Source of the DNA: an uncultured Clostridia bacterium
Lineage (GTDB): Bacteria; Bacillota; Clostridia; TANB77; CAG-508
NCBI GenBank assembly: GCA_934167685.1
Contig: CAKPLQ010000001.1
Coordinates: forward strand, 2,624-66,623
Reading direction: 5' to 3'
DNA length: 64,000 nt
This document shows, one piece after another, positions 3,227 to 60,781 of the stretch (positions within the stretch are counted from its first letter, which is position 1; every line of letters begins with the position of its first letter). A model generated the notes under the pieces. It did no database searches. It saw nothing but the letters and a program-made list of their open reading frames with translations, and had not been told where the DNA came from. Position numbers and translations under genes: made by a program.

Positions 3227-3301
3227 TGAACGGATGGGACCGGTTCTCAACGGTGCAGTAAACATAAAAATGCACCGTTGAGAACCGGCCCCAAACGTTC
3301 A
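3227..3301. repeat. palindromic repeat element copy A (hairpin dimer of the 31-nt GAACCGGTCCC-core unit); probable bidirectional terminator between convergent spoVT and mutS2
   Basis: tgaacggatGGGACCGGTTCTCAACGGTGCA, a 13-nt loop gtaaacataaaaa, then TGCACCGTTGAGAACCGGCCCCaaacgttca. The mutS2 stop codon lies inside the right arm. The same unit recurs at 37622, 38583, 56743 and 60707. Confidence 0.8.
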
Positions 3302-5680
3302 TTTTATTTTTAAACTAACAATGGTAACTCCCATTTCGCCTTCGCCAAAAGTACCAAGGCGGAAACTACCAACAAATTTATTATTTTTTAAGTAACGATG
3401 TATGCCATTACGCAAAGCACCAGTACCTTTACCATGTACTATACGTATAGGAGAAAGTTTTGCAACAAAGCAGTCATCGATATATTTATCTATAAGTGGA
3501 ACTGCTTCATCAACTGTCAATCCTAACACATTGATTTCTGGTTTTACAGTTTGAGCTTTAAAACTAGAATTACCAAGTACTTTACCAGAACTTCCGATAT
3601 TTGATTTTTTACTAGTATGATTCTCTGATTTAGATTCATACAAATTCTTAATATCAATTTTCATCTTCATTATACCAACTTGAACTTGAACAGTATTATC
3701 TTTAGAAATATTAGAAACTACAACACCATCAGAACCTAAATTATTTATATAAACATTTAAACCAGGTTTGATATCTTCACGTTTAATAGATGGAAGCAAA
3801 TTATCAGAAAGTTCAACAGTATCTGAACCAGAAAGTGAAGATATTTCATCATTTAATTTATTTCTAAGTTTATTAGCCTTAGAGGCAGAAGTGGTAGTAT
3901 CTAAATCTTTTATAATAGAATTAGCAGTTTCTTTAGCATCAATCAAAATTTGTTTTGCCTCTTGTTTAGCATTTGCAACCAATTCTTTTTCTTTACTAGA
4001 AACATCAAAGTGCTGATTTTTTAAAGTTTTACGCAATTCTTCTGCTTCTTGCAAAGCGATAGAAGTATGGCGTTTTTCGTCTTCAATTTTAGATTTTTCG
4101 TCATAGATGTTTTTTAGCAAATCTTCAAGATTAACAGTTTCTTTATCAATCATAGAAGAAGCACGTTCTATAATTGCCTCATTTAAACCTAATTTTCTAC
4201 TTATCGCAAAAGCATTACTTTTACCAGGAATGCCTATTAATAGACGATAAGTAGGTTTTAAATTTTCTATGTCAAATTCTACACTGGCGTTTTTAAAACC
4301 AGGTGTAACTAAAGCATATTTTTTCAATTCTTGATAATGTGATGTTGCTACAGTAAGGCAACCAAGTTCTGTAAAGTATTGTAAAATGCTGATTGCAAGA
4401 TGTGCACCTTCAAGTGGGTCTGTACCAGAACCTAATTCATCCACAAGAATTAAGCTATCTGCAGTGGCTGTTTGAGTGATTTTAACAATGTTACTAATGT
4501 GAGATGAAAATGTACTTAAAGATTCAGTAATACTTTGTTCATCACCAATATCAGCGAAGATGTGGTCAAATACATAAATGCTAGAATGTTCATCTGCAGG
4601 GATATTTAAACCACTACATGCCATGGCTGATAAAAGACCGATTGTTTTTAATGATACAGTTTTTCCGCCAGTGTTTGGACCTGTAATAATCAAACTTGAA
4701 AAGTCAGTGCCTAGTACTAAAGAAATAGGTACAACTTTGTCCATATCAATTAAGGGATGACGGGCATTGTTTAAAATAATTTGCTTGTTGTTATTTATTT
4801 CTGGTGTAGTGCAGTGCAATTCTAAAGAATAATGTGCTTTGGCAAATATAAAATCAAGTTTTCCAATTAATTTAGCATTACTTTCAAGTTCTTTTGTGTA
4901 AGGGAATAGCAAACCACTCAAGTTTTGCAAAATTCTTTCAATTTCAAGTTCTTCTTCAATATGCAAGTTAGATAGTTCATTATTAAAGTCGAATACAGCT
5001 AATGGCTCGATAAATACAGTTGAACCACTACTTGACATGTCATGAACAAATCCTTTTACACAACTACGATATTCTTCCTTTACAGGTATTACAAAACGAC
5101 CATTACGAATTGTTACAAGGTTTTCTCTCATGTATTTTGAGTATGTGGAAGAGTGTAAAATGGTATTTAATTTGGCACGAATGTCTTGTTCAATTTTTCG
5201 TTCTTTTCGACGAATGTCTTGCAACTTAGCAGAAGCACTATCTGCGATTGTATATTCATCAACAATTGATTTTGCAAAAGTAGCAACAATGCTTGGATTT
5301 ACGTATAATTCTGTAAAGTATGGTTCAATGGCAGAGAAGTCTGAGGTTGCGAGAAAGTCTTTTGAAAGATATTCTTTTAAATCTGCTGACATTTGCAAAA
5401 TGTTTTGAAGTTCTAATAATGCTTTTATGCTAAGAGAACCACAGCCTTCTAATGTTTTTAAATATACTGTAATATCAGCAATTTCTCCAAGTGGTGGGGT
5501 ACTGTTTCTTTGCATTAAAATTACTCCTTGACTTGTTTCGTTTAGTATTTTTTGTACTTCTGCTTTGTCTTGTGATGGACGTAATTCTTCTGCATATTTT
5601 TTTCCTATATATGTTTTACAATAGTTTGATATGTTTTCTAATATTTTATCAAATTCTAGTTTTTTTAGATTGTTGTTCAT
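3299..5680 (-). CDS. mutS2: endonuclease MutS2 (MutS ATPase domain plus C-terminal Smr domain)
   Basis: 793 aa. It has a Walker A motif ITGPNTGGKT and the MutS signature LVDELGSGTDPLEGAHLA. The C-terminal Smr domain reads ...DLHGLTVDEA...IVHGKGTGALR. Confidence 0.9.
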   Translation of the reverse strand: MNNNLKKLEFDKILENISNYCKTYIGKKYAEELRPSQDKAEVQKILNETSQGVILMQRNSTPPLGEIADITVYLKTLEGCGSLSIKALLELQNILQMSADLKEYLSKDFLATSDFSAIEPYFTELYVNPSIVATFAKSIVDEYTIADSASAKLQDIRRKERKIEQDIRAKLNTILHSSTYSKYMRENLVTIRNGRFVIPVKEEYRSCVKGFVHDMSSSGSTVFIEPLAVFDFNNELSNLHIEEELEIERILQNLSGLLFPYTKELESNAKLIGKLDFIFAKAHYSLELHCTTPEINNNKQIILNNARHPLIDMDKVVPISLVLGTDFSSLIITGPNTGGKTVSLKTIGLLSAMACSGLNIPADEHSSIYVFDHIFADIGDEQSITESLSTFSSHISNIVKITQTATADSLILVDELGSGTDPLEGAHLAISILQYFTELGCLTVATSHYQELKKYALVTPGFKNASVEFDIENLKPTYRLLIGIPGKSNAFAISRKLGLNEAIIERASSMIDKETVNLEDLLKNIYDEKSKIEDEKRHTSIALQEAEELRKTLKNQHFDVSSKEKELVANAKQEAKQILIDAKETANSIIKDLDTTTSASKANKLRNKLNDEISSLSGSDTVELSDNLLPSIKREDIKPGLNVYINNLGSDGVVVSNISKDNTVQVQVGIMKMKIDIKNLYESKSENHTSKKSNIGSSGKVLGNSSFKAQTVKPEINVLGLTVDEAVPLIDKYIDDCFVAKLSPIRIVHGKGTGALRNGIHRYLKNNKFVGSFRLGTFGEGEMGVTIVSLKIK

Positions 5681-5835
5681 TTAAAAATCATTCCCTTCTA
5701 AAGCATCAGTGGCTTTATAACACTATTATTATGTCACAAAAATGAGAAAATTTCAACAAAACCTTGCCAAAAATAGTAATAAAAGGTATAATGAAGATAT
5801 ACTAAAAAAATATAACTAAGAGAGGAGCGATTTTT

Positions 5836-6360
5836 ATGCAAATAAAAATAACAGGAAAGGAACTAAAGGTAACAGAAGCAATAAACGATTATGTAGAAAG
5901 AAAAATGGAAAGAGTAGCAAAATATTTTGATGATGCTGAAGCAGATGTAATGCTAAAAGTAGAAAAAAACATACAAATAGCAGAAATTAAAGTATCAGCA
6001 AACGGAGAAATGTTTAGAGCTGTAACAGAAGATAAAGATTTATATGCATCTATAGATAAAGATATAGACATATTAGAAGGACAAATAAGAAAATCAAAAA
6101 CAAAGAAAGACAAAATGATGAGAGATGCAAGCTTAAAAGCTTTAGATGCTGAAGAAACAGTACATGAGGTTACAGATGAAATATTAAAAACAGAATATTA
6201 TGACATCAAACCTATGACACCTGAAGATGCAAAATTAAAATTGCAAGAAAGACCATCTCAAATGATCTTGGCTTTTGTTAATGTAGAAACTTCTAAAGTT
6301 AATGTTATTCATAAATTAAAAGATGGTAAAAATTATGGTTTAATTGAGCCAGAGGCTTAA
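5836..6360 (+). CDS. hpf: ribosome hibernation promoting factor (long-form HPF/RaiA)
   Basis: 174 aa. The N-terminal sequence MQIKITGKELKVTEAINDYVERKMERVAKYF is typical of YfiA/HPF, and a C-terminal dimerisation domain is present. RBS AGAGGAG. Confidence 0.9.
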   Translation: MQIKITGKELKVTEAINDYVERKMERVAKYFDDAEADVMLKVEKNIQIAEIKVSANGEMFRAVTEDKDLYASIDKDIDILEGQIRKSKTKKDKMMRDASLKALDAEETVHEVTDEILKTEYYDIKPMTPEDAKLKLQERPSQMILAFVNVETSKVNVIHKLKDGKNYGLIEPEA

Positions 6361-6382
6361 TGATAAATAAATATATAATAAA

Positions 6383-6425
6383 AAGTTGTTTTGGATAAGA
6401 AATTATTTAAAGCAACTTTTTTGTG
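6383..6425 (+). terminator. rho-independent terminator downstream of hpf
   Basis: AAAGTTGTTTT...AAAGCAACTTTTTTG: a stem AAGTTG/CAACTT followed by a T-run. Confidence 0.5.
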
Positions 6426-6492
6426 TATTAAAGATTTTTTTAAGATGGAAAAAATTACATTGATAAAGTTTGAAAATTTTTATTATAAAGTA

Positions 6493-6521
6493 TTGAATTT
6501 TTTTTAGCATAACGATATAAT
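6493..6521 (+). promoter_or_regulatory. sigma-A-type promoter (TTGAAT-17-TATAAT) in front of polysaccharide module A
   Basis: TTGAAT at 6493-6498, a 17-nt spacer and TATAAT at 6516-6521. The annotated ATG at 6531 would then be nearly leaderless. An alternative TTGATA-17-TTATAA lies about 35 nt upstream. Confidence 0.4.
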
Positions 6522-6530
6522 GAACTTGAT

Positions 6531-7037
6531 ATGAAAAAATTCGACAAGAAACAACAAATAAAGATAATAAAAATAATATTAATTATAATATGGATGGGAG
6601 TAGTATTTGCATTTTCAAATCAAGGTGGAACAAAATCGAGTGGTACAAGCTCAAAGGTGACAAGAGTAATTGTAAATATTGTAACAAAAGACAATGAAGA
6701 ACCCAATAAACAAACAATGGAACAAATAGAAAAAGTTGTAAGAAAAGTCGCACATTATACTATTTATACAATAGGTGGATTCTTAATAATGAACTATACA
6801 TATTCAATGGAGAAAACCAAAAAGCAAAAGGTATTAGGAAGTTTACTTTTTGGCGTATTTTATGCGTCTACAGATGAATTACATCAATATTTTGTGCCTG
6901 GCAGAAGTGCAAGACTTTTTGATGTAGGAATTGATACACTAGGAGTTCTTACAGGAATTTTAGCATATTTAGTAATTAGAAAGTTAATAAAAAATATTGA
7001 TATACAAGTTAGGATTCATGGAAAAGAGGAAAAATGA
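6531..7037 (+). CDS. VanZ-like family membrane protein
   Basis: 168 aa, polytopic. The C-terminal segment ...TDELHQYFVPGRSARLFDVGIDTLGVLTG... matches the VanZ-like (PF04892) signature D-E-xHQ...PGR. Confidence 0.55.
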   Translation: MKKFDKKQQIKIIKIILIIIWMGVVFAFSNQGGTKSSGTSSKVTRVIVNIVTKDNEEPNKQTMEQIEKVVRKVAHYTIYTIGGFLIMNYTYSMEKTKKQKVLGSLLFGVFYASTDELHQYFVPGRSARLFDVGIDTLGVLTGILAYLVIRKLIKNIDIQVRIHGKEEK

Positions 7038-8977
7038 AAAGAGTTAATGATTTATTGAGAAAAAAATTCTCTAAGATAATAATTTTTATGTTACTAGATG
7101 TTAGTGTTATGCTAGTTGCCACATTTTTAGCGGTTGCTTTAAGATTTGACTTTATAAATATACCATTACAATATTTAGAAGTAGCCTTTAAGTATGTTGC
7201 TTTAGATATTGCTATTATGGTAACATCTTTTTCATTGTATAATTTGTATACATCAGTATGGAGATATGCTTCAATTACAGAACTAATTAATATTGTAATG
7301 GCTTGTGGTACAACAGAAATAATTTGTTTTGCATACAAAAAGTTTTTAGGAATATCAATGCCAAGAAGTTATTATTTAATTAGAGTATTACTATTAGTGC
7401 TTCTAATTACTTCAGTTAGATTTTCATTTAGAATATTAAGAACTCTTATTATAAAGATTGAAAATAAAAAGAAAAATAATAATATAATGATAATAGGTGC
7501 TGGAGAAGCTGCCAGATTATTAATAGATGAAATATCAAGAAATAAAAAATATTTTGATTCGAAAATAGTTTGTATAATAGATGATAACAAAGAAAAAATT
7601 GGAACATATTTAAGAGGAATACAAATTGTTGGAACAAGAAAGAAAATTAAGCAAGCATCTGAAACATATCAAGTTAATCAAATTATAATTGCAATTCCAT
7701 CAGCTCCAAAAGAGGAAATTTCTAAAATAGTTACAGAGTGCCAAAAGACCACTTGTGAATTAAAGATATTACCTTCAATTTATTTAACGATGAATGAAAA
7801 AGAAAATAATATTGTTAATAATATAAGACCAATATCATATGAAGACTTTTTAGGAAGAAGCCAAATCGTTGTTGATATTAATGAAATTTCTGATAATATT
7901 ACAGATAAAGTTATAATGGTAACTGGAGGAGGAGGTTCAATAGGTTCTGAACTTTGCAGACAGATTGCAAAATGTAATCCAAAGCAATTAATTATATTTG
8001 ATATTTACGAAAACAATGCATATGATATTCAAATGGAACTTTTAAGGGACTATCCAAAACTTGATTTACATGTTATAATTGGTTCAGTTAGAGATTATGA
8101 CAGATTAGAAAGAGTATTTAGGGAATATAAACCAAATCAAGTTTTCCATGCTGCAGCACATAAACATGTGCCATTAATGGAAATGAGTCCTAATGAGGCA
8201 ATAAAAAATAATTGTTTAGGAACGTTAAATTGTGCTAAATTAGCAGATAAATATAAAGTTGCAAAATTTGTACTAATTTCAACAGATAAAGCAGTAAGAC
8301 CAACGAATATAATGGGAGCATCAAAAAGAATTTGTGAAATGATAATTCAGAGCTATGATAAAAAAAGCAAAAATACATCTTATGTAGCAGTAAGATTTGG
8401 AAATGTGTTAGGTTCAAATGGTTCTGTAATTCCATTATTTTTAAAGCAGATAGAAAATGGAGGGCCTGTGACTGTTACACATAAAGATATAACTAGATTT
8501 TTTATGACAATACCAGAAGCAGTAAGTTTAGTGCTACAAGCAAGCGTTTATGCCGAAGGTGGAGAAATATTTGTTTTAGATATGGGACAACCTGTTAAAA
8601 TATATGATTTAGCAAAACAGATTATAAGATATAAAGGTTTTGAACCAAATGTAGATATAAAAATAGAAATTACAGGCTTAAGACCTGGAGAAAAATTATA
8701 TGAAGAAATTTTAATGGATGAGGAAGGTTTAAAAGAAACTCCTAATAAATTAATCCATATTGGCAAACCAATTGAAATAGATAAAAATTTCTTTAGAGAT
8801 TTGGATTTATTAATAAAAGCTTCATATAATAATGAGCCAAATATAAAAAAGAAAGTGGCTAGAATTGTAAAGACGTATAGAATAGATGAAAATATAAATT
8901 CTGAGAATAAAAATTATGAAACAAAAGTAATAAAGAATAATTTTGAAATAACAGAATTAAGAGAAGTAAATGCTTAA
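7034..8977 (+). CDS. membrane-anchored UDP-GlcNAc 4,6-dehydratase (CapD/PglF/WbpM family)
   Basis: 647 aa. Four N-terminal transmembrane helices are followed by a Rossmann motif VTGGGGSIGSEL, a YxxxK catalytic motif and a CapD C-terminal domain. A 4-nt overlap with the upstream gene suggests operon coupling. Confidence 0.8.
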   Translation: MKRVNDLLRKKFSKIIIFMLLDVSVMLVATFLAVALRFDFINIPLQYLEVAFKYVALDIAIMVTSFSLYNLYTSVWRYASITELINIVMACGTTEIICFAYKKFLGISMPRSYYLIRVLLLVLLITSVRFSFRILRTLIIKIENKKKNNNIMIIGAGEAARLLIDEISRNKKYFDSKIVCIIDDNKEKIGTYLRGIQIVGTRKKIKQASETYQVNQIIIAIPSAPKEEISKIVTECQKTTCELKILPSIYLTMNEKENNIVNNIRPISYEDFLGRSQIVVDINEISDNITDKVIMVTGGGGSIGSELCRQIAKCNPKQLIIFDIYENNAYDIQMELLRDYPKLDLHVIIGSVRDYDRLERVFREYKPNQVFHAAAHKHVPLMEMSPNEAIKNNCLGTLNCAKLADKYKVAKFVLISTDKAVRPTNIMGASKRICEMIIQSYDKKSKNTSYVAVRFGNVLGSNGSVIPLFLKQIENGGPVTVTHKDITRFFMTIPEAVSLVLQASVYAEGGEIFVLDMGQPVKIYDLAKQIIRYKGFEPNVDIKIEITGLRPGEKLYEEILMDEEGLKETPNKLIHIGKPIEIDKNFFRDLDLLIKASYNNEPNIKKKVARIVKTYRIDENINSENKNYETKVIKNNFEITELREVNA

Positions 8978-9005
8978 AATTAGATAGAAAAGAGAATGAC
9001 AAGAG

Positions 9006-10238
9006 ATGAAAAATATAAAACCTTTTGAAAATAAAGTATGGTTAAGTTCACCAACAATGCATGGAGATGAAATAAAATGGGTTGAAGAGGCATATAGAAC
9101 AAATTGGATGAGCACAGTTGGTGAAAACATTAATGAAGTTGAAAAGATGACATGTAAAAAAGTTGGGTGCAAATATGCTGTTGCATTATCTTCTGGAACG
9201 GCATCATTGCATTTAGCAATGAAATTAGCAGGAATCAAAAAAGATGAAAAGGTATTTTGTAGTGATATGACATTTAGTGCAACAGTAAATCCTATTATAT
9301 ATGAGGGTGGAATACCTGTATTTATTGATACAGAATATGATTCATGGAATATGGACCCAGTAGCCTTAGAAAAGGCATTTGAACTTTACCCAGAGGTTAG
9401 AGTGATAGTTGTTGTTCATTTATATGGAACACCTGCAAAAATGGATGAAATAATAAAAATTGCTAAAAAACATAATGCTATTGTTATAGAAGATTCAGCT
9501 GAAAGCTTGGGGGCTACATATAAAGGAAAACAAACTGGAGCATTTGGAAAATATAATTGTATTTCATTTAATGGAAATAAGATTATAACAGGTTCAAGTG
9601 GAGGAATGTTGTTAACAGACGACTTAAATGCTGCTAATAAGGCAAGAAAATGGTCAACACAAGCAAGAGAAAATGCACCATGGTATCAGCATGAAGAAAT
9701 AGGTTATAATTACAGAATGAGCAATGTTATAGCAGGTGTAGTTAGAGGGCAATATCCACATTTAGAAGAGCATATAGCCCAAAAGAAGGCCATATATGAA
9801 AGATATAAAGAAGGATTAAAAGGATTACCATTAAAAATGAATCCGATTCCAGATAATTGTGAGCCTAATTATTGGTTGTCTTGCATGATAATAGATAAAG
9901 ACGCTATGTGCAAGCAAGTAAGAGGCGAACAAGAAGCTCTTTATATAAGTCAAAAAGGAAAATCTTGCCCAACAGAAATACTAGAAAAAATAGCAAGTAT
10001 AAATGCAGAAGGAAGACCAATTTGGAAACCAATGCACATGCAACCTATTTTTAGAATGAATCCATTTGTTACTGGACATGGTAATGGCAGAGCAAATACA
10101 AATGCATATATTGCAGGAGAAAGTCAAGATATTGGTATGGATATATTTAATAGAGGATTGTGTTTACCTTCTGATAATAAGATGACACCAGAACAACAAG
10201 ATAAAATTATAGATGTTATAAGAGGATGTTTTGAATGA
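9006..10238 (+). CDS. DegT/DnrJ/EryC1/StrS-family PLP-dependent sugar 4-aminotransferase (PglE/Cap/WbpE-like)
   Basis: 410 aa. Family motifs are present, including ...VALSSGTASLHLAL... and the lysine-containing ...SFNGNKIITGSSGG... Confidence 0.85.
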   Translation: MKNIKPFENKVWLSSPTMHGDEIKWVEEAYRTNWMSTVGENINEVEKMTCKKVGCKYAVALSSGTASLHLAMKLAGIKKDEKVFCSDMTFSATVNPIIYEGGIPVFIDTEYDSWNMDPVALEKAFELYPEVRVIVVVHLYGTPAKMDEIIKIAKKHNAIVIEDSAESLGATYKGKQTGAFGKYNCISFNGNKIITGSSGGMLLTDDLNAANKARKWSTQARENAPWYQHEEIGYNYRMSNVIAGVVRGQYPHLEEHIAQKKAIYERYKEGLKGLPLKMNPIPDNCEPNYWLSCMIIDKDAMCKQVRGEQEALYISQKGKSCPTEILEKIASINAEGRPIWKPMHMQPIFRMNPFVTGHGNGRANTNAYIAGESQDIGMDIFNRGLCLPSDNKMTPEQQDKIIDVIRGCFE

Positions 10239-10912: not shown

Positions 10913-10925
10913 TTAGGGAGATAGA

Positions 10926-12597: not shown

Positions 12598-12609
12598 GGA
12601 GGAAGAGGT

Positions 12610-13134: not shown

Positions 13135-13171
13135 TAAATTAAGCATATATGTGAATTTAATGGAGGAGAAT

Positions 13172-15120: not shown

Positions 15121-15135
15121 AAGTATGGAGGATAT

Positions 15136-21411: not shown

Positions 21412-21479
21412 TGCATAAATATAAAAAAATAACAAAATATTTTAAGTCAAAATTTATAAAAAAAAATTTCAAAAAACTA

Positions 21480-21508
21480 TTGCACAAAAAGCGACTAAAT
21501 GTTATAAT
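21480..21508 (+). promoter_or_regulatory. consensus sigma-A promoter (TTGCAC-17-TATAAT) for the sortase-substrate/sortase pair
   Basis: TTGCAC at 21480-21485, a 17-nt spacer and TATAAT at 21503-21508, about 40 nt before the RBS GAAAGGAAG of the 21550 ORF. Confidence 0.6.
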
Positions 21509-21549
21509 CAAAATGTAAAAAATAAAACAAAAGAAAGGAAGAAAATAAA

Positions 21550-26097: not shown

Positions 26098-26195
26098 TTA
26101 AGGGTTTTAAGTATATAAATTCGTTATGAAAAAATTTGTATACTTTGAACCCTTTTTTGGCAATAGAAAAATCAAAAAACCTATTGCCAAAAAAC
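26098..26195 (+). terminator. two tandem hairpins downstream of the cpsB-like gene (terminator and/or operator)
   Basis: AAGGGTTTTAAGTATA...TATACTTTGAACCCTT is followed by a T-run. It is followed by a perfect 10-bp inverted repeat TTGGCAATAG-14nt-CTATTGCCAA flanked by T/A runs. Confidence 0.45.
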
Positions 26196-26290
26196 TAATA
26201 AAATGATATATTAAGTGGAGAAGAAAAAATTTCGACAAAAAGTACAAATAAACAACAAAATGTTTACTTCAATTATGGGGGGAGAAAAAA

Positions 26291-37117: not shown

Positions 37118-37146
37118 AAAGGCAGGAGCACATCTCCTGCCTTTAT
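37118..37146. terminator. bidirectional rho-independent terminator between the convergent LCP and SASP genes
   Basis: Perfect 11-bp stem AAAGGCAGGAG-cacat-CTCCTGCCTTT, with T-runs on both strands. Confidence 0.7.
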
Positions 37147-37276: not shown

Positions 37277-37486
37277 TTACTTATTAGCCATATTATTTTC
37301 AACTTGTTGAATCATTTTTCTAACCATATTTCCACCTATTTTACCAGCATCTTTAGCTGATATATCACCATTGTACCCATCTTTTAAAGTTACACCTACT
37401 TCTGAAGCAACTTCATATTTAAATTTATCTAAAGCGCTCATAGCTTCTGGAACTAATTTTTTGTTACTATTGTTTGAGTTTGCCAT
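37277..37486 (-). CDS. alpha/beta-type small acid-soluble spore protein (SASP)
   Basis: MANSNNSNKKLVPEAMSALDKFKYEVASEVGV...GGNMVRKMIQQ carries both conserved SASP alpha/beta blocks. RBS AGGAGGTG. The ORF track start (MKNM...) is a GTG inside the RBS. Confidence 0.85.
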   Translation of the reverse strand: MANSNNSNKKLVPEAMSALDKFKYEVASEVGVTLKDGYNGDISAKDAGKIGGNMVRKMIQQVENNMANK

Positions 37487-37621: not shown

Positions 37622-37702
37622 TGCACGTTTGGGACCGGTTCTTAACGGTGCAGTATTATAATTAGAAAAAATGCACCGTTAAGAACCGGTCCCAACGGTG
37701 CA
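37622..37702. repeat. palindromic repeat element copy B (hairpin dimer: unit - 19-nt A-rich loop - inverted unit)
   Basis: TGCACGTTTGGGACCGGTTCTTAACGGTGCA ... TGCACCGTTAAGAACCGGTCCCAACGGTGCA. It ends 22 nt before the cof-like start codon. Confidence 0.85.
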
Positions 37703-37724: not shown

Positions 37725-38681
37725 ATGTATAAATTAGCAACAATAGACTTAGATGGAACAATGTTAAATCAGTATGGAGTAGTAACAAACAGAACTAAAG
37801 AGGCAATAAAGAAAGCCAAAGAAAGAGGAATAGAAACAATAATTGCATCAGGCAGGCCAATAGATTCAATAAAGACAATTGCGCAAGAGATTGAAAGTGA
37901 TAAATATTTTATTTCTGGCAATGGAGCCATAATATATGATATTCAAAAAGATGAAATTATATACGAAAATACTCTAAAAAAATCGAAAGTTTTAGATATA
38001 ATCAAAATTTGTGAAGAAAATAGTATATATTATAATATTTATACAGAAAAAGAAATATTAGCAAAAAACCTACAGTGCAATGTTTTGTATTACTACAAAG
38101 AAAATTTGAACAAAGCAGAAAAGGATAAAACACATATAACTTTGATTGATGATATATATAAATATATAAGTGAAAGAGAAGAAAAGATTTTGAAAATAAC
38201 TGTATGTGATAGCACAAGAATAATATTCAATTCAATAATACGAAAATTAAAAGAAATAGATGAGGTAGAAGTATTGGACGTGTCACATATGTCAAGAAAA
38301 ATCATAAAGCAAGGAACAGAAGAGATACCAATAGAATATTTTTATACCGAAATTTCGGCTAAAAATGTCGATAAATGGAACGCAATACAAGTTTTAAAAG
38401 AAATTATGAATATAAAAACAGAGGAAATTATTGCAATAGGTGACAACATTAATGATAAAAAAATGATAGAAAATGCAGGATTGGGAATAGCAATGGGGCA
38501 AAGTACACCGCAAATAAAAGAAATAGCAAATCAGATTACAGATTCGAATTGCGAAGATGGTGTGGCTACGTTTTTAGAAAAGTGCACCGATGAGAACCGG
38601 TCCCAACGGTGCAAAAAATTGCACGGCAGAGAACCGGTCCCAACGGTGCAAACCTATAATTTTAAGGAAATGCACCGATAA
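37725..38681 (+). CDS. Cof-type HAD-IIB phosphatase with a repeat-derived C-terminal extension
   Basis: The N-terminal YKLATIDLDGTMLNQYGVVTNRTKEAIKKAKERGIETIIASGRP is HAD motif I/II. Near the C-terminus, ...IAIGDNINDKKMIENAGLGIAMGQS... is motif IV. The last ~34 codons (CTDENRSQRCKKLHGREPVPTVQTYNFKEMHR) are translated from the repeat array. Confidence 0.75.
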   Translation: MYKLATIDLDGTMLNQYGVVTNRTKEAIKKAKERGIETIIASGRPIDSIKTIAQEIESDKYFISGNGAIIYDIQKDEIIYENTLKKSKVLDIIKICEENSIYYNIYTEKEILAKNLQCNVLYYYKENLNKAEKDKTHITLIDDIYKYISEREEKILKITVCDSTRIIFNSIIRKLKEIDEVEVLDVSHMSRKIIKQGTEEIPIEYFYTEISAKNVDKWNAIQVLKEIMNIKTEEIIAIGDNINDKKMIENAGLGIAMGQSTPQIKEIANQITDSNCEDGVATFLEKCTDENRSQRCKKLHGREPVPTVQTYNFKEMHR

Positions 38682-38755
38682 GAACCGGTCCCAAACGTGC
38701 AAAAAGATGCCAAAAAAACAAAAATGCACGGCAGAGAACCGGTCCCAACGGTGCA
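38583..38755. repeat. array of four direct copies of the 31-nt GAACCGGTCCC-core unit (copy C1-C4) separated by 6-, 20- and 23-nt spacers
   Basis: Units are at 38583-38613, 38620-38650, 38671-38701 and 38725-38755, all in the same orientation. They overlap the 3' end of the cof-like ORF. Confidence 0.85.
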
Positions 38756-46705: not shown

Positions 46706-47152
46706 ATGGAAAATGCGGTTAAAGCCTTGTATATAGCAGCCGGAGTGTTAATTGCAGTAATGATTTTGTCTTTAGCTGCTGTAGTATATTCAAGTTTGCA
46801 AGGTTATGTAGAAAATACAAATCAACAGATAGAATTTAATGAAATAAATAGTTTTAATACGCAATATCTTGATTATGCTAATAAAGATGTTTCTATTCAA
46901 GATATAGTAACAGTTGCAGGCAATGCATATGAAAACAATTATTCATATAGTCCAGATATTAATCAATGGAATATTTCTGATAAATCTTTTTATGTGCAAG
47001 TTTTATTAAATGGAACTAGAATAGACCAAAATATTAATGATATAATGGTTAACTTATTAGAAAATAACAAGGATAAAGTATTTGTAACTGATGATATATC
47101 ATATGCAAAAGACACTTCAAAAGTGTGCAGTATAAGTTTTAAAACAAAGTAA
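46706..47152 (+). CDS. leaderless Flp/pilin-like protein, paralog 2 (MENAVKALYIAAGVLIAVMIL...)
   Basis: An in-frame TGA lies 15 nt upstream, with no alternative start possible in between. The N-terminus is conserved with the paralogs. Confidence 0.5.
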   Translation: MENAVKALYIAAGVLIAVMILSLAAVVYSSLQGYVENTNQQIEFNEINSFNTQYLDYANKDVSIQDIVTVAGNAYENNYSYSPDINQWNISDKSFYVQVLLNGTRIDQNINDIMVNLLENNKDKVFVTDDISYAKDTSKVCSISFKTK

Positions 47153-47199
47153 AAAAATGTTGCAATTTAAAAAATTAAATGTTATAATGAGGGAAAATA

Positions 47200-50641: not shown

Positions 50642-50709
50642 AAAAAAAGCTGTTTTTTTGACACTTTTTGTGATATTATAGTATATATAATAATAGAGGG
50701 AGTAGATAA

Positions 50710-51279: not shown

Positions 51280-51928
51280 ACCATGGGCAAGACCAGAATT
51301 GGAAGCAAGTAGCTTTTATAGAGATAATCCAGAAGAATTAAAAAATAAATGGATAGAAGAATTTAAAAACAAAAATAATCCAATTCATTTGGAATTAGGT
51401 TGTGGAAAAGGACAATTTATATCAAAATTAGCAGTTCAAAATCCTAACATCAATTATATTGCAATAGATTTAGTTGATGCGATGTTAGGATTAGCTAAAA
51501 GAAATGTAGAAGAGACATACAAAGAGCAAGAAAAAGAAGTTGATAATCTTATATTAACAAGATTTGATATAGAAAGAATAATGCTTATTTTGGGAGAACA
51601 AGATAATGTTAGAAGAATATACATTAATTTTTGCAATCCATGGCCAAAGGGAAAACATAGAAAGAAAAGATTGACACATACAAGACAGTTAGAAAAATAT
51701 AAAACTTTTTTGGCTCCAAATGGAGAAATATATTTTAAAACTGACGATGACGACTTATTTAATAGTAGTTTAGGATATTTTGAAGAGGCAGGTTTTAAGA
51801 TTTTAAAGAAAACTTATGACTTACATAAAGAACCAATATGGGAAAATAATATAGAGACTGAGCATGAAAAAATGTTTAGTGAGCAAGGAATAAAAATAAA
51901 AGCATTAATAGCAACTAGAATATTATAA
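51263..51928 (+). CDS. trmB: tRNA (guanine46-N7)-methyltransferase
   Basis: The N-terminal sequence MRIRFKPWARPELEAS...IHLELGCGKGQFISKLA and the segment NFCNPWPKGKHRKKRL match the TrmB family. Confidence 0.85.
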   Translation: MRIRFKPWARPELEASSFYRDNPEELKNKWIEEFKNKNNPIHLELGCGKGQFISKLAVQNPNINYIAIDLVDAMLGLAKRNVEETYKEQEKEVDNLILTRFDIERIMLILGEQDNVRRIYINFCNPWPKGKHRKKRLTHTRQLEKYKTFLAPNGEIYFKTDDDDLFNSSLGYFEEAGFKILKKTYDLHKEPIWENNIETEHEKMFSEQGIKIKALIATRIL

Positions 51929-51991
51929 AAATTTCAAAAAATGTATTGTCAAAATAGAAATAATGTGATACTATATTAAAGTAATTGACGT

Positions 51992-52066: not shown

Positions 52067-52149
52067 TTTATTTATAATTTAGGGGGCAAAAACAGATTTT
52101 TTTAATCTGTTTTTTGTGTTGGTAACTGAACTCTCGGAAAGGACCCTAA

Positions 52150-52725: not shown

Positions 52726-52775
52726 TTTACACATATAAAAAACTATGTTATTATATAGCACAAGGAGATGAGAAA

Positions 52776-54491: not shown

Positions 54492-54556
54492 GAAGAGAGC
54501 ATCTATTATAGATGCTCTCGATTTTGATATAGCCACGATAACTATAGTCTTAAATT

Positions 54557-54922: not shown

Positions 54923-55037
54923 TATTTTGTCCTCCTGATTTTATTAAAAAGTTTAAGAGTTGCACTAACTCATTTGAGTTACAAATGTTATTATATCATA
55001 TTTTTTAGAAAAATACTAGTTTTTTTAGAAAAATTAA

Positions 55038-55066
55038 TTGACAACTAGAAAATAAAAGAATATAAT
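55038..55066 (+). promoter_or_regulatory. consensus sigma-A promoter (TTGACA-17-TATAAT) of the glyQS T-box leader
   Basis: TTGACA at 55038-55043, a 17-nt spacer and TATAAT at 55061-55066. Confidence 0.65.
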
Positions 55067-55072
55067 ATTGCC

Positions 55073-55312
55073 AATTAAAGAGTTACGGAGAAAAAGAAAA
55101 ATTATGTGGAATTACAAATAGAGAGCTGATGATGGTGGAATATCAGTAGTAAAGAAGCATAAGGGGAGCTTTGGAGTAATATAAATTAAGGTGCTTGATT
55201 GTTGTATTAGAAAAATCAAGAAATAGGGTGGAACCGCGGAAATATAGACTTTCGTCCCTAGCGCATGTATTTTTATATTTGTGCTAGGTGCGAAAGTTTT
55301 TTTGTATGCAAA
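55073..55312 (+). promoter_or_regulatory. T-box riboswitch leader (glycine-type) with intrinsic terminator
   Basis: The conserved T-box sequence AATAGGGTGGAACCGCGG lies at 55221-55238. It is followed by a terminator hairpin GACTTTCG...CGAAAGT plus T7 (55253-55312), immediately upstream of glyQS. Confidence 0.75.
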
Positions 55313-55353
55313 AATTGAAATTGCCTAGCAAAAAAGATTAAGGAGGAATAAAA

Positions 55354-56736
55354 ATGGTAAAATCAATGGACACAATAGTAAACTTATGTAAAGCAAGAGG
55401 ATACATTTATCCTGGTTCAGAAATTTATGGAGGACTTGCAAACACTTGGGATTATGGACCTTTAGGAGTAGAGTTGAAAAACAATGTAAAAAAATTATGG
55501 AGAAAAAAATTCATACAAGAAAGTAAATATAATGTAGGATTAGATGCAGCAATATTAATGAACCCACAAACTTGGGTTGCATCTGGACATGTTGGAGGAT
55601 TTTCAGACCCATTAATAGATTGCAAAGAATGTAAAACAAGACATAGAGCAGACAAATTAATAGAAGAATGGGCACATGAGCAAGGAAAAGACATGATAGC
55701 AGATGGAATGTCAGACGAAGAAATGGTAAAATTCTTAGATGACAACAACATCCCATGTCCAAGCTGTGGAAAGCACAATTTTACATCAATACGTAAATTC
55801 AACTTAATGTTTAAAACATTCCAAGGAGTTACAGAAGATGCAAAAGCAGAAATATATTTAAGACCGGAAACAGCACAAGGAATATTTGTAAACTTCAAAA
55901 ATGTAATGAGAACAACAAGAAAAAAACTACCAATGGGAATAGCACAAATAGGAAAAGCATTCAGAAACGAAATAACACCAGGAAACTTTACATTTAGAAC
56001 AAGAGAATTTGAGCAGATGGAACTAGAATTTTTCTGCAAACCAGGAACAGACTTAGAATGGCATGAATACTGGAAGAAATTCTGTGAAGATTGGTTATTA
56101 GGATTAGGAATGAAAAAAGAAAATATTCGTTTAAGAGACCACAGTCCAGAAGAATTAGTATTTTACAGTAAAGCAACAACAGACATAGAATATGCATTTC
56201 CATTTGGATGGGGAGAATTATGGGGAATTGCAGACAGAACAGACTATGACCTAACAAATCATATGAATATGTCAAAAGAAGACTTCACATATTTAGACCC
56301 AGAAACAAACGAAAGATATGTACCATACTGTATAGAGCCATCACTTGGTGCTGACAGAGTAGCACTTGCATTTTTATGCAGCGCATATGATGAAGAAGAA
56401 ATAGCAGAAGGAGACACAAGAACAGTATTACACTTACATCCAGCATTAGCACCATACAAAGTAGCAGTATTGCCATTATCAAAGAAATTATCAGAAAAAG
56501 CAGAAGAAGTATATACACAATTATCAAAGAAATTTATGTGTGAATATGACGAAACAGGTTCAATAGGAAAACGTTATAGAAGAGAAGACGAAATAGGAAC
56601 ACCATACTGTGTAACAGTTGACTTTGACACATTAGAAGATAATACTGTAACAATAAGAGACAGAGATACAATGGAACAAATCAGAGTAAAAATTGACGAA
56701 TTAGATGCTTGGATAAGTAACAAGGTAGAATTTTAA
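55354..56736 (+). CDS. glyQS: glycine--tRNA ligase (class II, alpha2-type GlyQS)
   Basis: 460 aa. The N-terminal sequence [38 protein letters not shown] is highly conserved in GlyRS. Class II motifs 2 and 3 are present ([25 protein letters not shown]; GADR). Confidence 0.9.
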
Positions 56737-56742
56737 TTTTTT

Positions 56743-56773
56743 TGCACGTTTGGGACCGGTTCTCATCGGTGCA
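56743..56773. repeat. palindromic repeat element copy D (single 31-nt unit) directly after the glyQS stop
   Basis: TGCACGTTTGGGACCGGTTCTCATCGGTGCA, 7 nt after the TAA. Confidence 0.8.
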
Positions 56774-56795
56774 TTTTTACGAAAGGAAAAGAAAA

Positions 56796-57500
56796 ATGGA
56801 GAATAAGCGAGTAATTATATCGATTTTGATAGTTTTATTTTTAATTATTGGAATAGTGGTTGGAATGTATATGTTTAGTGGATTTAGTAAAGAGCAGACC
56901 AAGTTGTTGACTGATGAAACTAATAAGATTTTGCAATCAGATATAGCAACTGAAAACATTGATTTGAATATTAAAACAAATAAAAACTACGCTGTAGTAG
57001 AAAAAGCGGTTAAAGAATATGTCTCTGAGTTAAAGAATATATATGTAGAAATGGTTGAATTAAATACGGGAATAAATCCTAATAATATTTTTACAGCTCA
57101 AAACATGAGTAATAAAGATTTAAGCGAAATTGATGATATAATTAAAGATTATAAAGATAAAAGCCAAAATGCTATTGAAGACTTAGAGGAATTATTAACT
57201 GAAGAAAAAATTGCAGAAAACATTAATAAAAGAGAATTTTCGAATAGAAAAGATTACTATATAGATTTATATAATACTATTATGACTAGCGATTCTATGA
57301 AAGAACAATATAATGCAATAGAAGAAAAAATTAAAGATGAAAAAAGCAAGTTGACTGATAAGGTTAACCAGATAAATAAAATAGCAGAGTTCTTGAAAAA
57401 GAATTCTGATGCATGGGAAATTAAAGAGGATAAAATACAGTTTACTAATTTAAATAGAATGACGGAATATTATAGTCTATTAAACAAATTGATAGATTAG
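56796..57500 (+). CDS. hypothetical N-terminally anchored coiled-coil protein
   Basis: MENKRVIISILIVLFLIIGIVVGMYMF: one transmembrane helix followed by a Lys/Glu-rich helical region. The ORF track start lies inside the repeat and is probably spurious. Confidence 0.45.
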   Translation: MENKRVIISILIVLFLIIGIVVGMYMFSGFSKEQTKLLTDETNKILQSDIATENIDLNIKTNKNYAVVEKAVKEYVSELKNIYVEMVELNTGINPNNIFTAQNMSNKDLSEIDDIIKDYKDKSQNAIEDLEELLTEEKIAENINKREFSNRKDYYIDLYNTIMTSDSMKEQYNAIEEKIKDEKSKLTDKVNQINKIAEFLKKNSDAWEIKEDKIQFTNLNRMTEYYSLLNKLID

Positions 57501-57527
57501 TAGAAGTAGAAAGGATTGTGAGAAATA

Positions 57528-58886
57528 ATGAGAAAATACTTTGGAACAGATGGGATTCGTAGAATTGCTAATACAGAATTATCACCTGAGTTGGTATATA
57601 GAGTTGCAAAAGCAGGAGCATATGTGTTGTCAAAACATACTAATAAAGCTCCAACGATATTGATAGGAAGAGATACACGTCTTTCTGGAACTTTGATAGA
57701 GAGTGCTATGGTTGCTGGTTTTTTGAGCTATGGTGCTAATGTAAAATTGTTGGAGGTTATTCCAACACCGGGAGTTGCTTATTTAACAAGAAAACTTCAA
57801 GCAGATGCAAGTGTTGTAATATCAGCATCTCATAATACATTTGAATTTAATGGAATAAAATATTTTAGCAATAAGGGAATGAAAATTCCTGATAGTATAG
57901 AAGAAGAAATTGAAGATGTTATGGACTCTGGCAAGCTAGATGAACTAACTGCAGTAAGTGAAAAAATAGGCGTGTCTGAAATAAGAACTGATTTATTAGA
58001 TGAATATGTATACTTTTTTAGAAAGAATTTTGATGATAATATTGCTAAGTTTAATAGACCAGATTTTAAAGTTGTAATTGATACTGCAAATGGTGCGACA
58101 TATAAAGTGGCTGAAAAGGTATTTTCAATTCTTGGTATAAACCATGTAATAATAAATAACCATCCTAATGGTATTAATATTAATGATGGATGTGGTTCAA
58201 CACATCTTGAGATGTTAAAGGACTATGTTGTAAAAAACAAAATGAGTCTTGGAATTGCTTATGATGGTGATGGAGATAGATGTTTGGCTGTTGATGAAAA
58301 TGGTGAAGAAATTGATGGAGATAAATTGTTGGCTATTATTTCTAATTATTTAAAGAAACAAGGCAAACTTAATAAAGATACTATAGTTGCTACAGTTATG
58401 AGTAATTTAGGATTAAATAAATATGCTGAAAAAGAAGGATTGAATTTTATTCAGACAAAAGTTGGAGATAGATATGTTTTAGAAGAAATGCTTAAAAATG
58501 GCTATAATCTAGGCGGGGAACAATCTGGACACGTAATATTATTGGATTATAATCCTACAGGAGATGGAATTTTGACTTCATTGATGCTTATTCAAGCTAT
58601 ATTAAAAAGTGGAAAAAAGGCTTCAGAATTAGGTGGAATGGTGCAAAAATATCCTCAGGTTTTAGTTAATGCAAAGGTAGATTCTGATAAAAAATATGCT
58701 TATAAAGATGATGCGGAAATTCAAAAAGCAATTGAGGAATTAGAAAAAGAATTTTCTGGAAATGGTAGAGTTTTGATTAGACCTTCTGGAACAGAGCCTC
58801 TTGTAAGAGTTATGATTGAAGGAAAAGATGAAAAAGTTATAGAACAAAAAGCAAGAAAAATTGCAGATATGATAGAAAAACAGTAA
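57528..58886 (+). CDS. glmM: phosphoglucosamine mutase
   Basis: MRKYFGTDGIRR..., the active-site segment SASHNTFEFNGIKYF (phospho-Ser loop), and a Mg site at AYDGDGDRC. Confidence 0.9.
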   Translation: MRKYFGTDGIRRIANTELSPELVYRVAKAGAYVLSKHTNKAPTILIGRDTRLSGTLIESAMVAGFLSYGANVKLLEVIPTPGVAYLTRKLQADASVVISASHNTFEFNGIKYFSNKGMKIPDSIEEEIEDVMDSGKLDELTAVSEKIGVSEIRTDLLDEYVYFFRKNFDDNIAKFNRPDFKVVIDTANGATYKVAEKVFSILGINHVIINNHPNGININDGCGSTHLEMLKDYVVKNKMSLGIAYDGDGDRCLAVDENGEEIDGDKLLAIISNYLKKQGKLNKDTIVATVMSNLGLNKYAEKEGLNFIQTKVGDRYVLEEMLKNGYNLGGEQSGHVILLDYNPTGDGILTSLMLIQAILKSGKKASELGGMVQKYPQVLVNAKVDSDKKYAYKDDAEIQKAIEELEKEFSGNGRVLIRPSGTEPLVRVMIEGKDEKVIEQKARKIADMIEKQ

Positions 58887-59015
58887 TTTACATAACTTGA
58901 CAAAATTGATAAATATTTGTATAATAAAATTATTGTTTAGTTATATGGTTCAGAAATAATTTTAGAATCAATTAAACAACTAACATCTTTTAGTTATTTT
59001 TAACGGAGGAGAAAA

Positions 59016-59687
59016 ATGGAACAGTTGCTTAAGAAAAAAGAAGAAACCTATTGGAACAAAAATAATGTGAAACTTGTGGGAACAATAGAGGAAGATTTGG
59101 AATTCGATAATAGAGTTCAAAGAATCGATTTCTATATGACCAAAATAAAAGTTACACGGAAGAGTGGGAAAATTGACCATATACCACTTATGATTTCTGA
59201 AGAATTACTGAAAAATAGAAATATACAAAAAAGTGAATTAAAAGATAAGAAAGTGTGTATTTATGGGCAGTTTAGAACCTATGACAAAAATATTCCAGAT
59301 GGGCAGTTTTTTGTAAAAATGTATGTGTTTGTAAATAAAATACATTTTTGTGATTTTGATATAATTGTAGATAACAATATAACTACAATTGATGGTTATA
59401 TCTGCAAAAAGCCAATTTTTCGGATTACTTCTTTAAGTAAGTCTAAAATAACTCAGTTATTAATAGCTGTAAATAGGAAAAATGATTCAGTAGATTATGT
59501 TCCATGCATCGCATGGAGTAAGATTGCAGAACGATCTTCAAAATTAAAGATAGGAACTCATGTTATTTGCAAAGGAAGATTACAGAGTAGAAAATATCCC
59601 AAGAAAAAGATGGATGAAGATGGAAATGTAATTGTAGAATGGAAGGAGACATATGAGATGTCGATTGTGAAAATTCATGAGGACTAG
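59016..59687 (+). CDS. hypothetical protein (possible OB-fold / SSB-like)
   Basis: 223 aa. The stretch NVKLVGTIEEDLEFDNRVQRIDFYMTKIKVTRKSGKIDHIPLMISEEL loosely resembles an SSB-type OB fold. RBS GGAGGAGAAAAATG. Confidence 0.35.
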   Translation: MEQLLKKKEETYWNKNNVKLVGTIEEDLEFDNRVQRIDFYMTKIKVTRKSGKIDHIPLMISEELLKNRNIQKSELKDKKVCIYGQFRTYDKNIPDGQFFVKMYVFVNKIHFCDFDIIVDNNITTIDGYICKKPIFRITSLSKSKITQLLIAVNRKNDSVDYVPCIAWSKIAERSSKLKIGTHVICKGRLQSRKYPKKKMDEDGNVIVEWKETYEMSIVKIHED

Positions 59688-59800
59688 GTAAGTGTAGAAT
59701 TTTATAAAAAATAACTAAAAGGTGGGGAGGAACATGTGAAATGTTCCTCTTGCTTTTTTTTATAAAAGATGTTAAAATACCAACAGAAAGAAGGATGATT

Positions 59801-60706
59801 ATGGGATTTTTTGATAAATTAAAACAAGGATTAAATAAAACAAAAGAATCAATAAATGAAAAAATAAATGATGTATTTAGTAATTTCAGAAAAGTAGATG
59901 AAGACTTTTTAGAAGAACTAGAAGAAGCTTTGATAATGTCAGACATAGGAATAGAAACATCAACAAAAATAATTTCTAATTTAAGAGAAAGAATGAAAAA
60001 AGAAAAAATAGAAGATGAAGAGCAAGTAAAAGAAGCATTAAGAGAAGAAATTGCGCAAATTTTAGAGATTTCAGATAATTCATTAAAATTAGAAACAAAA
60101 CCATCAGTAATTCTAGTAATAGGAGTAAATGGAGTAGGAAAAACAACATCAATAGGAAAAATGGCCGCAAGACTATCAAGAGATGGCAAAAAAGTAGTTG
60201 TTGCAGCAGCAGATACATTTAGAGCAGCTGCAGTAGAACAATTAGAAATTTGGGCTAAAAGAGCCGGAGCAGAAATTGTTAAAAGGGAAGAAGGAATAGA
60301 CCCTGCATCAGTAGTATATGATGCTATAGCGAAAACTAGAGAACTAGGGGCTGACATATTAATATGTGATACAGCAGGAAGATTGCATAACAAGAAATAC
60401 TTAATGGACGAGTTAAATAAAATCCAAAAAGTAATAAATAAAGAAATGCCAGAAGCATCAAAAGAAGTATTATTAGTAATAGATGCAGGAACTGGACAAA
60501 ATGCAATATCACAAGTAAAAGCATTTAAAGAACAAGCTGATATTACAGGTATAGTATTGACAAAATTAGATGGAACTGCAAAAGGAGGAGCTGTAATAGG
60601 GATTGTAGAGGAAAACCAAATACCTGTTAAATTCATAGGAGTTGGGGAACAAATAGATGATATGGAGATTTTCAACTCAAAAGATTTTGCAAAGGCAATT
60701 ATTTAG
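59801..60706 (+). CDS. ftsY: signal recognition particle receptor FtsY
   Basis: NG domain with VILVIGVNGVGKTTSIGKMA (G1), DTAGR (G3) and TKLDGTAKGG (G4). The short N-terminus is typical of Firmicutes. Start chosen at MGFFDKL after GAAGGA. Confidence 0.9.
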   Translation: MGFFDKLKQGLNKTKESINEKINDVFSNFRKVDEDFLEELEEALIMSDIGIETSTKIISNLRERMKKEKIEDEEQVKEALREEIAQILEISDNSLKLETKPSVILVIGVNGVGKTTSIGKMAARLSRDGKKVVVAAADTFRAAAVEQLEIWAKRAGAEIVKREEGIDPASVVYDAIAKTRELGADILICDTAGRLHNKKYLMDELNKIQKVINKEMPEASKEVLLVIDAGTGQNAISQVKAFKEQADITGIVLTKLDGTAKGGAVIGIVEENQIPVKFIGVGEQIDDMEIFNSKDFAKAII

Positions 60707-60781
60707 TGCACCGATGGGACCGGTTCTTAACGGTGCAGTATACATAAAAATGCACCGCTAAGAACCGGTCCCATCGGTGCA
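60707..60781. repeat. palindromic repeat element copy E (hairpin dimer) immediately after the ftsY stop
   Basis: TGCACCGATGGGACCGGTTCTTAACGGTGCA, the loop gtatacataaaaa, then TGCACCGCTAAGAACCGGTCCCATCGGTGCA. The loop is nearly identical to that of copy A. Confidence 0.85.

Follow-up and report, generated by a model that had tools for sequence, protein, structure and literature searches.

Short repeats of the repetitive extragenic palindrome (REP) type, including those organised as bacterial interspersed mosaic elements (BIMEs) and as REPINs, are known together with REP-associated tyrosine transposases (RAYTs) from Enterobacteria, Pseudomonas, Stenotrophomonas and Neisseria (PMC2817692, PMC3116915, PMC5581495). 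That each transposase lineage goes with a repeat specific to it has been described for such systems (PMC2817692, PMC6006769), and the structure 4ER8 shows the RAYT of E. coli in complex with a REP hairpin. In the survey by Bertels et al. (PMC5581495), RAYT groups 2 and 3 were the only ones with abundant flanking repeats; group 1 was recorded in Clostridia, where the 16-mers were of low abundance. The Y---NP motif is the signature of class-2 TnpA-REP proteins (PMC6006769); within that scheme, Quentin et al. 2018 reported subclass 2.1, which comprises long, C-terminally extended Y1 proteins, as being without identifiable REP-like structures nearby (PMC6006769), and Di Nocera et al. 2013 (PMC3733652) described TIRYT proteins and TIRtrons, whose inverted repeats share the motif GGGGWSAS. 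Here we analyse a family of 31-nt hairpin repeats in a 64-kb stretch of DNA from an uncultured Clostridia bacterium (contig CAKPLQ010000001.1, positions 2,624 to 66,623; hereafter the window, numbered from its first letter). With a probability of roughly 0.8, we read these units as REP-type non-autonomous repeats whose cognate, a single-copy RAYT-like (TIRYT-like) transposase of the Y1/HUH type, is encoded elsewhere in the genome.

The kind of system is a known one (REP, BIME or REPIN with a RAYT), and the family, its host group and its architecture are new. As in the REP/RAYT systems cited above and typified by 4ER8, the repeats are short imperfect palindromes, extragenic and dense, which occur as singles, as inverted doublets forming long hairpins and as clusters. 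A single-copy HUH/Y1 gene is flanked by repeats (a REPtron), is apparently inherited vertically and keeps a fixed synteny, and each transposase lineage tends toward its own repeat. Unlike in those systems, the host belongs to a low-GC Clostridia lineage, direct arrays in tandem occur as often as inverted doublets, and the transposase is about 100 residues longer, with a C-terminal extension. The units also differ from classical REPs in having, instead of a GTAG/CGTC head, a 12-nt core at the hairpin tip as the determinant, with the middle of the stem free to vary.

The closest described relatives are the TIRYT/TIRtron systems and TnpA-Y1 subclass 2.1, of which the present transposase may be a member. 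As there, the RAYT-like protein is long, has the Y---NP motif and ends in a region that looks like a possible helix-turn-helix; some families of terminal inverted repeats (TIRs) also reach moderate copy numbers and occur as dimers or in clusters. When compared with GGGGWSAS, GGGGACGG and GGGGTCGG, both from sister lineages, match at 7 of 8 positions, and TGGGACCG, from the present family, at 6 of 8. In contrast to what was reported for subclass 2.1, the flanking units here are hairpins, members of a family that is dispersed at high density (about 0.2 to 1 per kb). Some units are translated as parts of host proteins (a 33-residue tail of Cof, and the tail of an ABC-2 permease in contigs L144 and L145), which recalls the Rickettsia palindromic elements and intragenic REPs. 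Unlike the Rickettsia elements, however, they affect only the 3' ends of genes, through a displaced stop codon, and no in-frame insertions inside domains were seen among the copies examined. A literature search retrieved no paper containing the core string, which matched only unrelated primer sequences, and none on REP/RAYT systems in Clostridia; the RAYT and REPIN papers found concern Proteobacteria.

Anatomy and distribution of the repeat units

The window contains 11 units and one degenerate remnant, against a chance expectation of about 0. At up to one mismatch, GAACCGGTCCC was matched 12 times (0.04 expected), and the full 31-mer, at up to three mismatches, was matched 10 times (0 expected). 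A metagenome scan requiring the core plus three bases of each foot of the hairpin returned at least 120 contigs. At least 96 low-GC contigs carry the family, and most of these come from human-gut metagenomes or from metagenome-assembled genomes (MAGs) labelled as uncultured Clostridia (760 kb including the window), so the family is not confined to the region where an earlier note, made on the letters of the window alone, had described it. Among the matches listed, there were 219 core matches in low-GC contigs, with 189 distinct contexts in about 42 non-overlapping regions. In a scan of one genome per species, the motif was present in three MAGs of uncultured Clostridia, namely CAKPHD01, CAKPDZ01 and the 1.55-Mb chromosome OV788638.1. 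Isolated core matches in high-GC metagenome contigs look like chance occurrences, as do two isolated matches of the genome scan in GC-rich sequence of Lachnospiraceae and Gemmata, which have no second arm.

Read on the strand carrying GGGACC, the 31-nt unit can fold into a hairpin with a 5-bp foot, an internal region (4x4) of variable sequence, an apical stem of 4 bp (GGGA/TYCT) and a CCGGT loop, and is usually trailed by a T-rich tail. The asymmetric 12-nt core at the hairpin tip, GGGACCGGTTCT, is essentially invariant across 189 non-identical copies, in which the arms vary. The foot covaries, being either TGCAC/GTGCA or GGTAC/GTACC: the pair (-9,21) is T-A or G-C and the pair (-7,19) is C-G or T-A. 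Watson–Crick pairs at these positions numbered 154 and 151, respectively, above the values of all 500 shuffles (means 118 and 109). At the four inner arm positions, that is, in the 4-nt segments leading from foot to core, pairing was no better than with shuffled partners, and covariation over the full 9-bp arm is ruled out, since only the outer five pairs rise above chance. The earlier note had described the element by perfect 9-bp outer arms, a description that we replace with an invariant core and a foot whose 5 bp alone pair consistently in the 189 copies.

Within the core, a G1–T11 wobble that belongs to the apical stem is nearly invariant (183/189), and position 12 is C or T, either of which pairs with G0. 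Because the core itself can pair in this way (GGGA with TYCT around CCGGT, with the G·T wobble and the G0 pair), the GGGACC strand of a single unit folds better than its complement (-11.6 vs -6.2 kcal/mol). A second subfamily, with arms ...ACATT / GTTTTGCTCAC, is abundant in a sister species.

Among the matches listed, the units fall into at least 118 distinct sites, comprising 48 singles, 41 tandem arrays, 24 convergent doublets, 3 mixed clusters and only 2 divergent doublets. The tandem arrays mostly have periods of 32–42 nt. Within a doublet, one unit is an inverted duplicate of the other: in 8/24 doublets they agree at each of the 9 variable positions, as compared with 2% of random pairs. 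The spacers, too, are related, with the type GTAAACATAAAAA (...ACATAAAAA) recurring at several unrelated loci. Given the inverted duplication and the recurring spacer, the doublet acts as one repeated entity, in the manner of a REPIN.

In the same set of matches no unit lay deep inside a gene. All overlaps with open reading frames (ORFs) were within about 250 nt of an ORF end, and in several of them the stop codon had been displaced into a unit. The ABC-2 permease gene in L144 (4252-5619) and L145 (1126-2544) reads through an array, and the length of the protein (455 vs 472 residues between strains) varies with the copy number of the array. Also in L145, a run of N (a scaffold gap, ~4100-4112) lies directly at a repeat array; from this gap, it seems that the arrays may break or confuse the short-read assembly of such MAGs.

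Searches for known elements gave little. At Rfam gathering thresholds only a transfer-messenger RNA (tmRNA) and one tRNA passed in the window, and at relaxed E-values the units gave only sub-threshold matches, of the generic long-hairpin kind, to miRNA-precursor models. BLAST searches of plasmids and phages with the repeat found no match, and a scan of viral contigs returned just two single pattern matches, which were not looked into. We could rule out CRISPR arrays, as the units abut without unique spacers, and DNA-uptake sequences, as coding DNA is avoided and every unit is itself a hairpin.

The transposase and its flanking units

When all ORFs of the low-GC contigs were searched by phmmer with an E. 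coli RAYT sequence, a weak lead (E = 0.0046) emerged in the two most repeat-rich contigs, and Pfam, NCBIfam and the fold search then bore it out; phmmer with IS200 and IS608 TnpA gave no match. The protein so identified has 262 residues and belongs to the Pfam family Y1_Tnp (E = 1.4e-9, 38.6 bits, cut-off 23). Its top NCBIfam model is the REP-associated tyrosine transposase (REP_Tyr_transpos, 57–63 bits), while the IS200 model scores 23 bits. In an alignment of 24 homologues, H60 and H62 (the HUH motif) and Y119, N123 and P124 (the Y---NP motif) are invariant. Also visible in the alignment are a motif YKWSSY and, at the C-terminus, about 120 conserved residues of helical character that end in KTQVARxxRxxR. 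This region looks helix-turn-helix-like, with a match to HTH_23 that is not significant (E = 0.099).

The AlphaFold (AF2) model of the protein has a mean predicted local distance difference test (pLDDT) score of 73.7, and the top match in the Protein Data Bank (PDB) by Foldseek is 4ER8_A (E = 6.8e-7), followed by the TnpA proteins of IS608, IS200 and ISDra2. A sequence search of the PDB with the same protein did not reach 4ER8.

In six contigs (L021, L038, L138 and L144-146) the gene is flanked by units, two or three of them direct (>>) upstream and inverted ones downstream, which is the layout of a REPtron. The gene order YunB–RAYT–NuoE/HydB/HydA (hydrogenase) is kept across contigs about 78–79% identical in DNA, with one context per lineage. 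This conserved context fits a vertically inherited, single-copy transposase gene. The MAG GCA_964313985.1 likewise carries this transposase. In one contig of the P0014 context (L143), the hydrogenase genes downstream are replaced by those for phosphoglucose isomerase (PGI) and ribulose-phosphate epimerase on the opposite strand, which suggests a rearrangement with its breakpoint at the REPtron.

The flanking units change with the transposase. Identities given here were measured against the protein of the L021/P0166 type, unless stated otherwise. The P0166 and P0014 proteins, 77% identical to each other, share the core of their units and differ in arms and array period (32 nt in L138). For more distant proteins we observed the core GGGACCGGGTAT with arms GCCCC/GGGGC (P0030, 61%), the core GGGGTCGGTTCT (P0079, 57%), the core GGGGACGGGATTG within the flanking unit CATTTGGGGACGGGATTGAAATG (P0048, 59–60%), and an unchanged core with new arms (P0038, 62%). 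Altogether, five transposase lineages, 57–77% identical to the reference, have distinct arms or cores in their flanking units. Four homologue loci, encoding proteins 57–62% identical, have hairpin repeats of their own (L149, 4780-5870; L147, 5835-7092; L168, 4791-5857; L169, 4846-6182), three with altered cores (GGGACCGGGTAT, GGGGACGGGATTG and GGGGTCGGTTCT) and one with the same core and different arms. In L149 and L147, units of the flanking type also occur elsewhere in the contig, away from the gene; the pattern used in the metagenome search is blind to the repeat families of these homologues.

The link to the window runs through closely related contigs. Those with the P0166-type gene (the L021/L144 type) carry arms of the window type. 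The OUQF and OLNW contigs are 93–99.8% identical to each other, and one OLNW contig (L074) is 95.7% identical to the window. In addition, the same RAYT and genes identical to those of the window co-occur in the samples ERZ28614911 and ERZ4567234.

Mobility and alternative explanations

Comparison of sister strains revealed differences in both insertion and copy number. In the 5' untranslated region (UTR) of spoVT, the site is empty in L025 (…cttaaaaaacaaaaaggagg…), while L074 has a unit plus an A-rich linker (41 nt) inside an A-run; the filled site shows no clear target duplication beyond the ambiguous A-run. At other orthologous sites, one strain has one unit and another has two, or two and three, respectively, and at one position a tandem pair (<<) in one strain corresponds to a convergent pair (><) with different arms in another. 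In one array, a single unit step of 41 nt separates strains that share about 98% identity.

Most likely, the RAYT-like transposase spreads the units. Its part in their mobilisation, and the single-stranded mechanism outlined here, are what we infer. If E. coli TnpA-REP and IS608 TnpA are a guide, the transposase would act on DNA in single-stranded form, probably at replication forks, where it would recognise the hairpin together with its invariant, asymmetric core and would cut and rejoin at the hairpin/core. The products, copied into A/T-rich intergenic DNA, would be single units, array steps of a unit plus linker (~32–42 nt) and whole convergent doublets. Secondary effects on the host may follow, as a hairpin with a T-run could terminate transcription in one orientation, long bidirectional hairpins would come to lie between genes, and displaced stop codons would give proteins repeat-encoded tails, as in Cof.

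The REP-like nature that the earlier note had surmised is favoured by the dispersed copies, by the presence of a RAYT-like Y1 transposase gene, flanked by units, in related contigs of the same species-level group, and by the polymorphism between strains. Several points nonetheless weigh against the proposed REP/RAYT pair. By tblastn, there is no transposase gene in the 64-kb window; the genome of the window would encode one elsewhere, to judge from the species-level relation and the co-occurrence in samples. The score for REP_Tyr_transpos is under the curated cut-off of that model (80 bits), and the activity of the enzyme on the units is predicted from homology to 4ER8 and IS608 TnpA. Neither a GTAG nor a CGTC head is evident in the column composition of the 189 copies, whose flanks are T- or A-rich. 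Arrays could also grow by slippage or recombination. Finally, since the search pattern fixed the core and three foot bases per side, what is conserved from -7 to -5 and from 17 to 19 is so partly by construction (the covariation between the two foot sides is not an effect of the pattern). The metagenome sample is biased by the same pattern, and the gene calls behind the context statistics were ORFs of at least 80 residues, by which small genes are missed.

Could the units primarily be Rho-independent terminators or RNA hairpins, similar to one another because selection on gene expression keeps them so and not because they move? G·U pairs do extend the stem on the GGGACC strand, to which the difference in folding energy given above also points; about half of the singles have 4 or more T among the next 6 nt, a consensus scan flagged the unit at 37702-37672 as terminator-like, and the copy after glyQS has a fitting orientation and a T-run. 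In co-directional intergenic regions, however, tandem arrays are mostly antisense (22 vs 6 sense) and singles are balanced (13 vs 10), which speaks against termination as the primary reason for the family. Besides, several copies lie in 5' UTRs or promoter regions, and the window also has terminators of the ordinary kind, each unique in sequence (two examples are at 37118-37144 and 54495-54519). Termination needs no invariant 12-nt apical sequence, and it would leave both the insertion polymorphism and the flanking of the transposase unexplained. We therefore consider this explanation quite improbable, and the terminator or mRNA-stabiliser role proposed in the earlier note would be a side effect at best.

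Selection at the level of the host could instead act on the near-palindromic core (nGnACCGGTnCn), were it a double-stranded site for a protein serving the nucleoid, segregation, uptake or restriction–modification. The core is indeed invariant across species whose flanking genes are only ~79% identical, the arm halves assort nearly independently, like two half-sites, and the transposase itself has a C-terminal region that is helix-turn-helix-like. Yet the core is always asymmetric (GGGACC vs AGAACC), which a symmetric dimer site would not need; the foot covaries as base pairs; copies are kept out of coding DNA, whereas uptake sequences as in Haemophilus are not; and the only candidate protein linked to the units is the transposase, all of which makes such a site very improbable. 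Least credible to us is that the units are miniature inverted-repeat transposable elements (MITEs) or solo ends of a conventional insertion sequence (IS), whether of the DDE type or of the IS200/IS605 type with TnpB. Insertion polymorphism of short inverted-repeat elements is typical of MITEs, and the associated enzyme is in the same superfamily as the TnpA of IS200/IS605. At 31 nt, though, the units are far shorter than MITEs or PATEs (palindrome-associated transposable elements), and the sole filled site lacks a clear target duplication beyond its A-run. The transposase gene is seen in one syntenic chromosomal context and not in multiple mobile copies, and the NCBIfam RAYT model outscores the IS200 model (57 vs 23 bits). 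No known IS, plasmid, phage, Rfam or literature match was found apart from the two viral-contig matches. The two outcomes that the earlier note had named as contrary to its reading, copies confined to this region and a match to a known IS terminal repeat, did not come about.

A different alternative keeps the transposase and reinterprets its relation to the host. The family might be a REP population of long standing that spore-forming gut Clostridia inherit vertically and that a long RAYT (TIRYT/subclass-2.1 type) maintains. The core would then be kept by host-level selection as well as by the specificity of the transposase, and repeat and enzyme would form a domesticated pair and not a purely selfish one. 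In that case the units might act as orientation-dependent insulators against antisense transcription between tightly packed genes. We regard such domestication as unlikely.

Copies and neighbouring genes in the window

The window has a GC content of 28%, and nearly all its genes lie on the + strand. For each unit, the sign given below denotes the strand on which GGGACCGGTTCT reads. There are three inverted pairs (3227-3301, 37622-37702 and 60707-60781), which form hairpins of 75–81 nt with folding energies of -53 to -63 kcal/mol (z about -12). The first is a convergent, REPIN-like doublet between the convergent genes spoVT and mutS2, with one unit at 3227..3257 (+) and the other at 3271..3301 (-); the latter, eleventh in our count, is degenerate, with the core GGGGCC, and its outer arm contains the mutS2 stop codon (TGA, 3299-3301). 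The second convergent doublet (37622..37652, +; 37672..37702, -) occupies the divergent region between a small SASP-like gene on the minus strand and cof on the plus strand, and ends ~23 nt upstream of the cof ATG. The third, also convergent, begins directly after the ftsY stop (60707..60737, +), its second unit (60751..60781, -) being upstream of the ribosome-binding site (RBS) of the UPF0182 gene. Two of the spacers, gtaaacataaaaa and gtatacataaaaa, measure 13 nt and belong to a type found at other loci in other contigs.

Four direct copies make up a tandem array at the end of cof, all on the minus strand. The cof ORF has no stop ahead of the array and is translated through the first two units (38583..38613, part of the C-terminal extension, and 38620..38650, within the extended ORF) before it terminates at a TAA (38679-38681) inside the third (38671..38701); the fourth unit is at 38725..38755. 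As the Hydrolase_3 domain of the haloacid dehalogenase (HAD) superfamily ends, by Pfam, at residue 284/318 and the ORF runs on into the array, the last ~33 residues of Cof are repeat-encoded. The single unit at 56743..56773 (+) starts 6 nt past the glyQS stop and is followed by TTTTT, a terminator-like orientation; it is kept in four metagenome contigs 99.7–100% identical to the window. Lastly, a degenerate unit of the second subfamily (TTACACACATTA TGGACCGGTTCT GTTTTGCTCAC) is found at 91..121 (-), where it borders a 690-nt segment missing in the sister strain L074.

The copies listed in the earlier note (inverted pairs, four direct units, a single and a remnant) are all present in the sequence where it had placed them, as are the long hairpins, the near-identical 13-nt loops and the doublet in a divergent region. 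Its supposed core-only remnant at ~103-113 does correspond to a degenerate copy (near 101-112), though one that belongs to the second subfamily and is not a mere core. It had also put most full copies within 0–7 nt of a stop codon, which is accurate for glyQS (6 nt), ftsY (0 nt) and mutS2 (stop within the unit) and inaccurate for spoVT, whose stop is 10 nt away, and for cof, whose stop is inside the third unit of the array.

The gene names used in that note agree with Pfam, which identifies the neighbours as SpoVT, MutS2, a Cof-type HAD hydrolase, FtsY and UPF0182, and the glycyl-tRNA synthetase (GlyRS, GlyQS) by its own Pfam families. The small minus-strand gene (~37277-37486) has a strong RBS and, judged from its translation, encodes a protein resembling the alpha/beta-type small acid-soluble spore proteins (SASPs). 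Together with SpoVT, also in the window, and with the SpoVG, SipL and YunB of related contigs, this gene suggests that the lineage probably forms spores.

Some features of the window stand apart from the repeats. The tmRNA gene (772-1124, minus strand) is flanked by segments (82-771 and ~1172-2645) that are missing in sister strains: L074 (~95–96% identical) is without both, and L025 (~88% identical) is without ~1205-2582. The larger segment contains a 310-residue ORF (1324-2256) that has no significant Pfam match; the smaller begins at the degenerate repeat unit and contains a 97-residue ORF without match. The two segments may represent an island inserted beside the tmRNA gene. A block of ~28 kb (~9000-37100) is free of repeat units, the remaining part of the window having 12. 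It shows internal similarities of the glycosyltransferase kind and has a LytR_cpsA_psr gene at its end; it looks like a surface-polysaccharide cluster, perhaps transcribed as a single long operon or perhaps acquired recently. Also recurrent is an A-rich sequence of ~40–60 nt ending in TTGCA/TTGCC...N17...TATAAT (5747-5810, 21463-21526, 26160-26212, 47151-47188 and 51927-51961), copies of which look like a strong promoter that several operons have in common, with an A-tract upstream of it.

REP/REPIN–RAYT systems have been studied almost only in Proteobacteria, and the family described here extends them to Firmicutes. It does so with a different recognition layout, in which an invariant apical core is combined with a covarying foot and a free mid-stem, and the transposase lineages with changed flanking units offer a natural series for studies of specificity. 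For the organisms themselves, the repeats alter gene ends, may complicate the assembly of MAGs and could serve as markers for strain typing.

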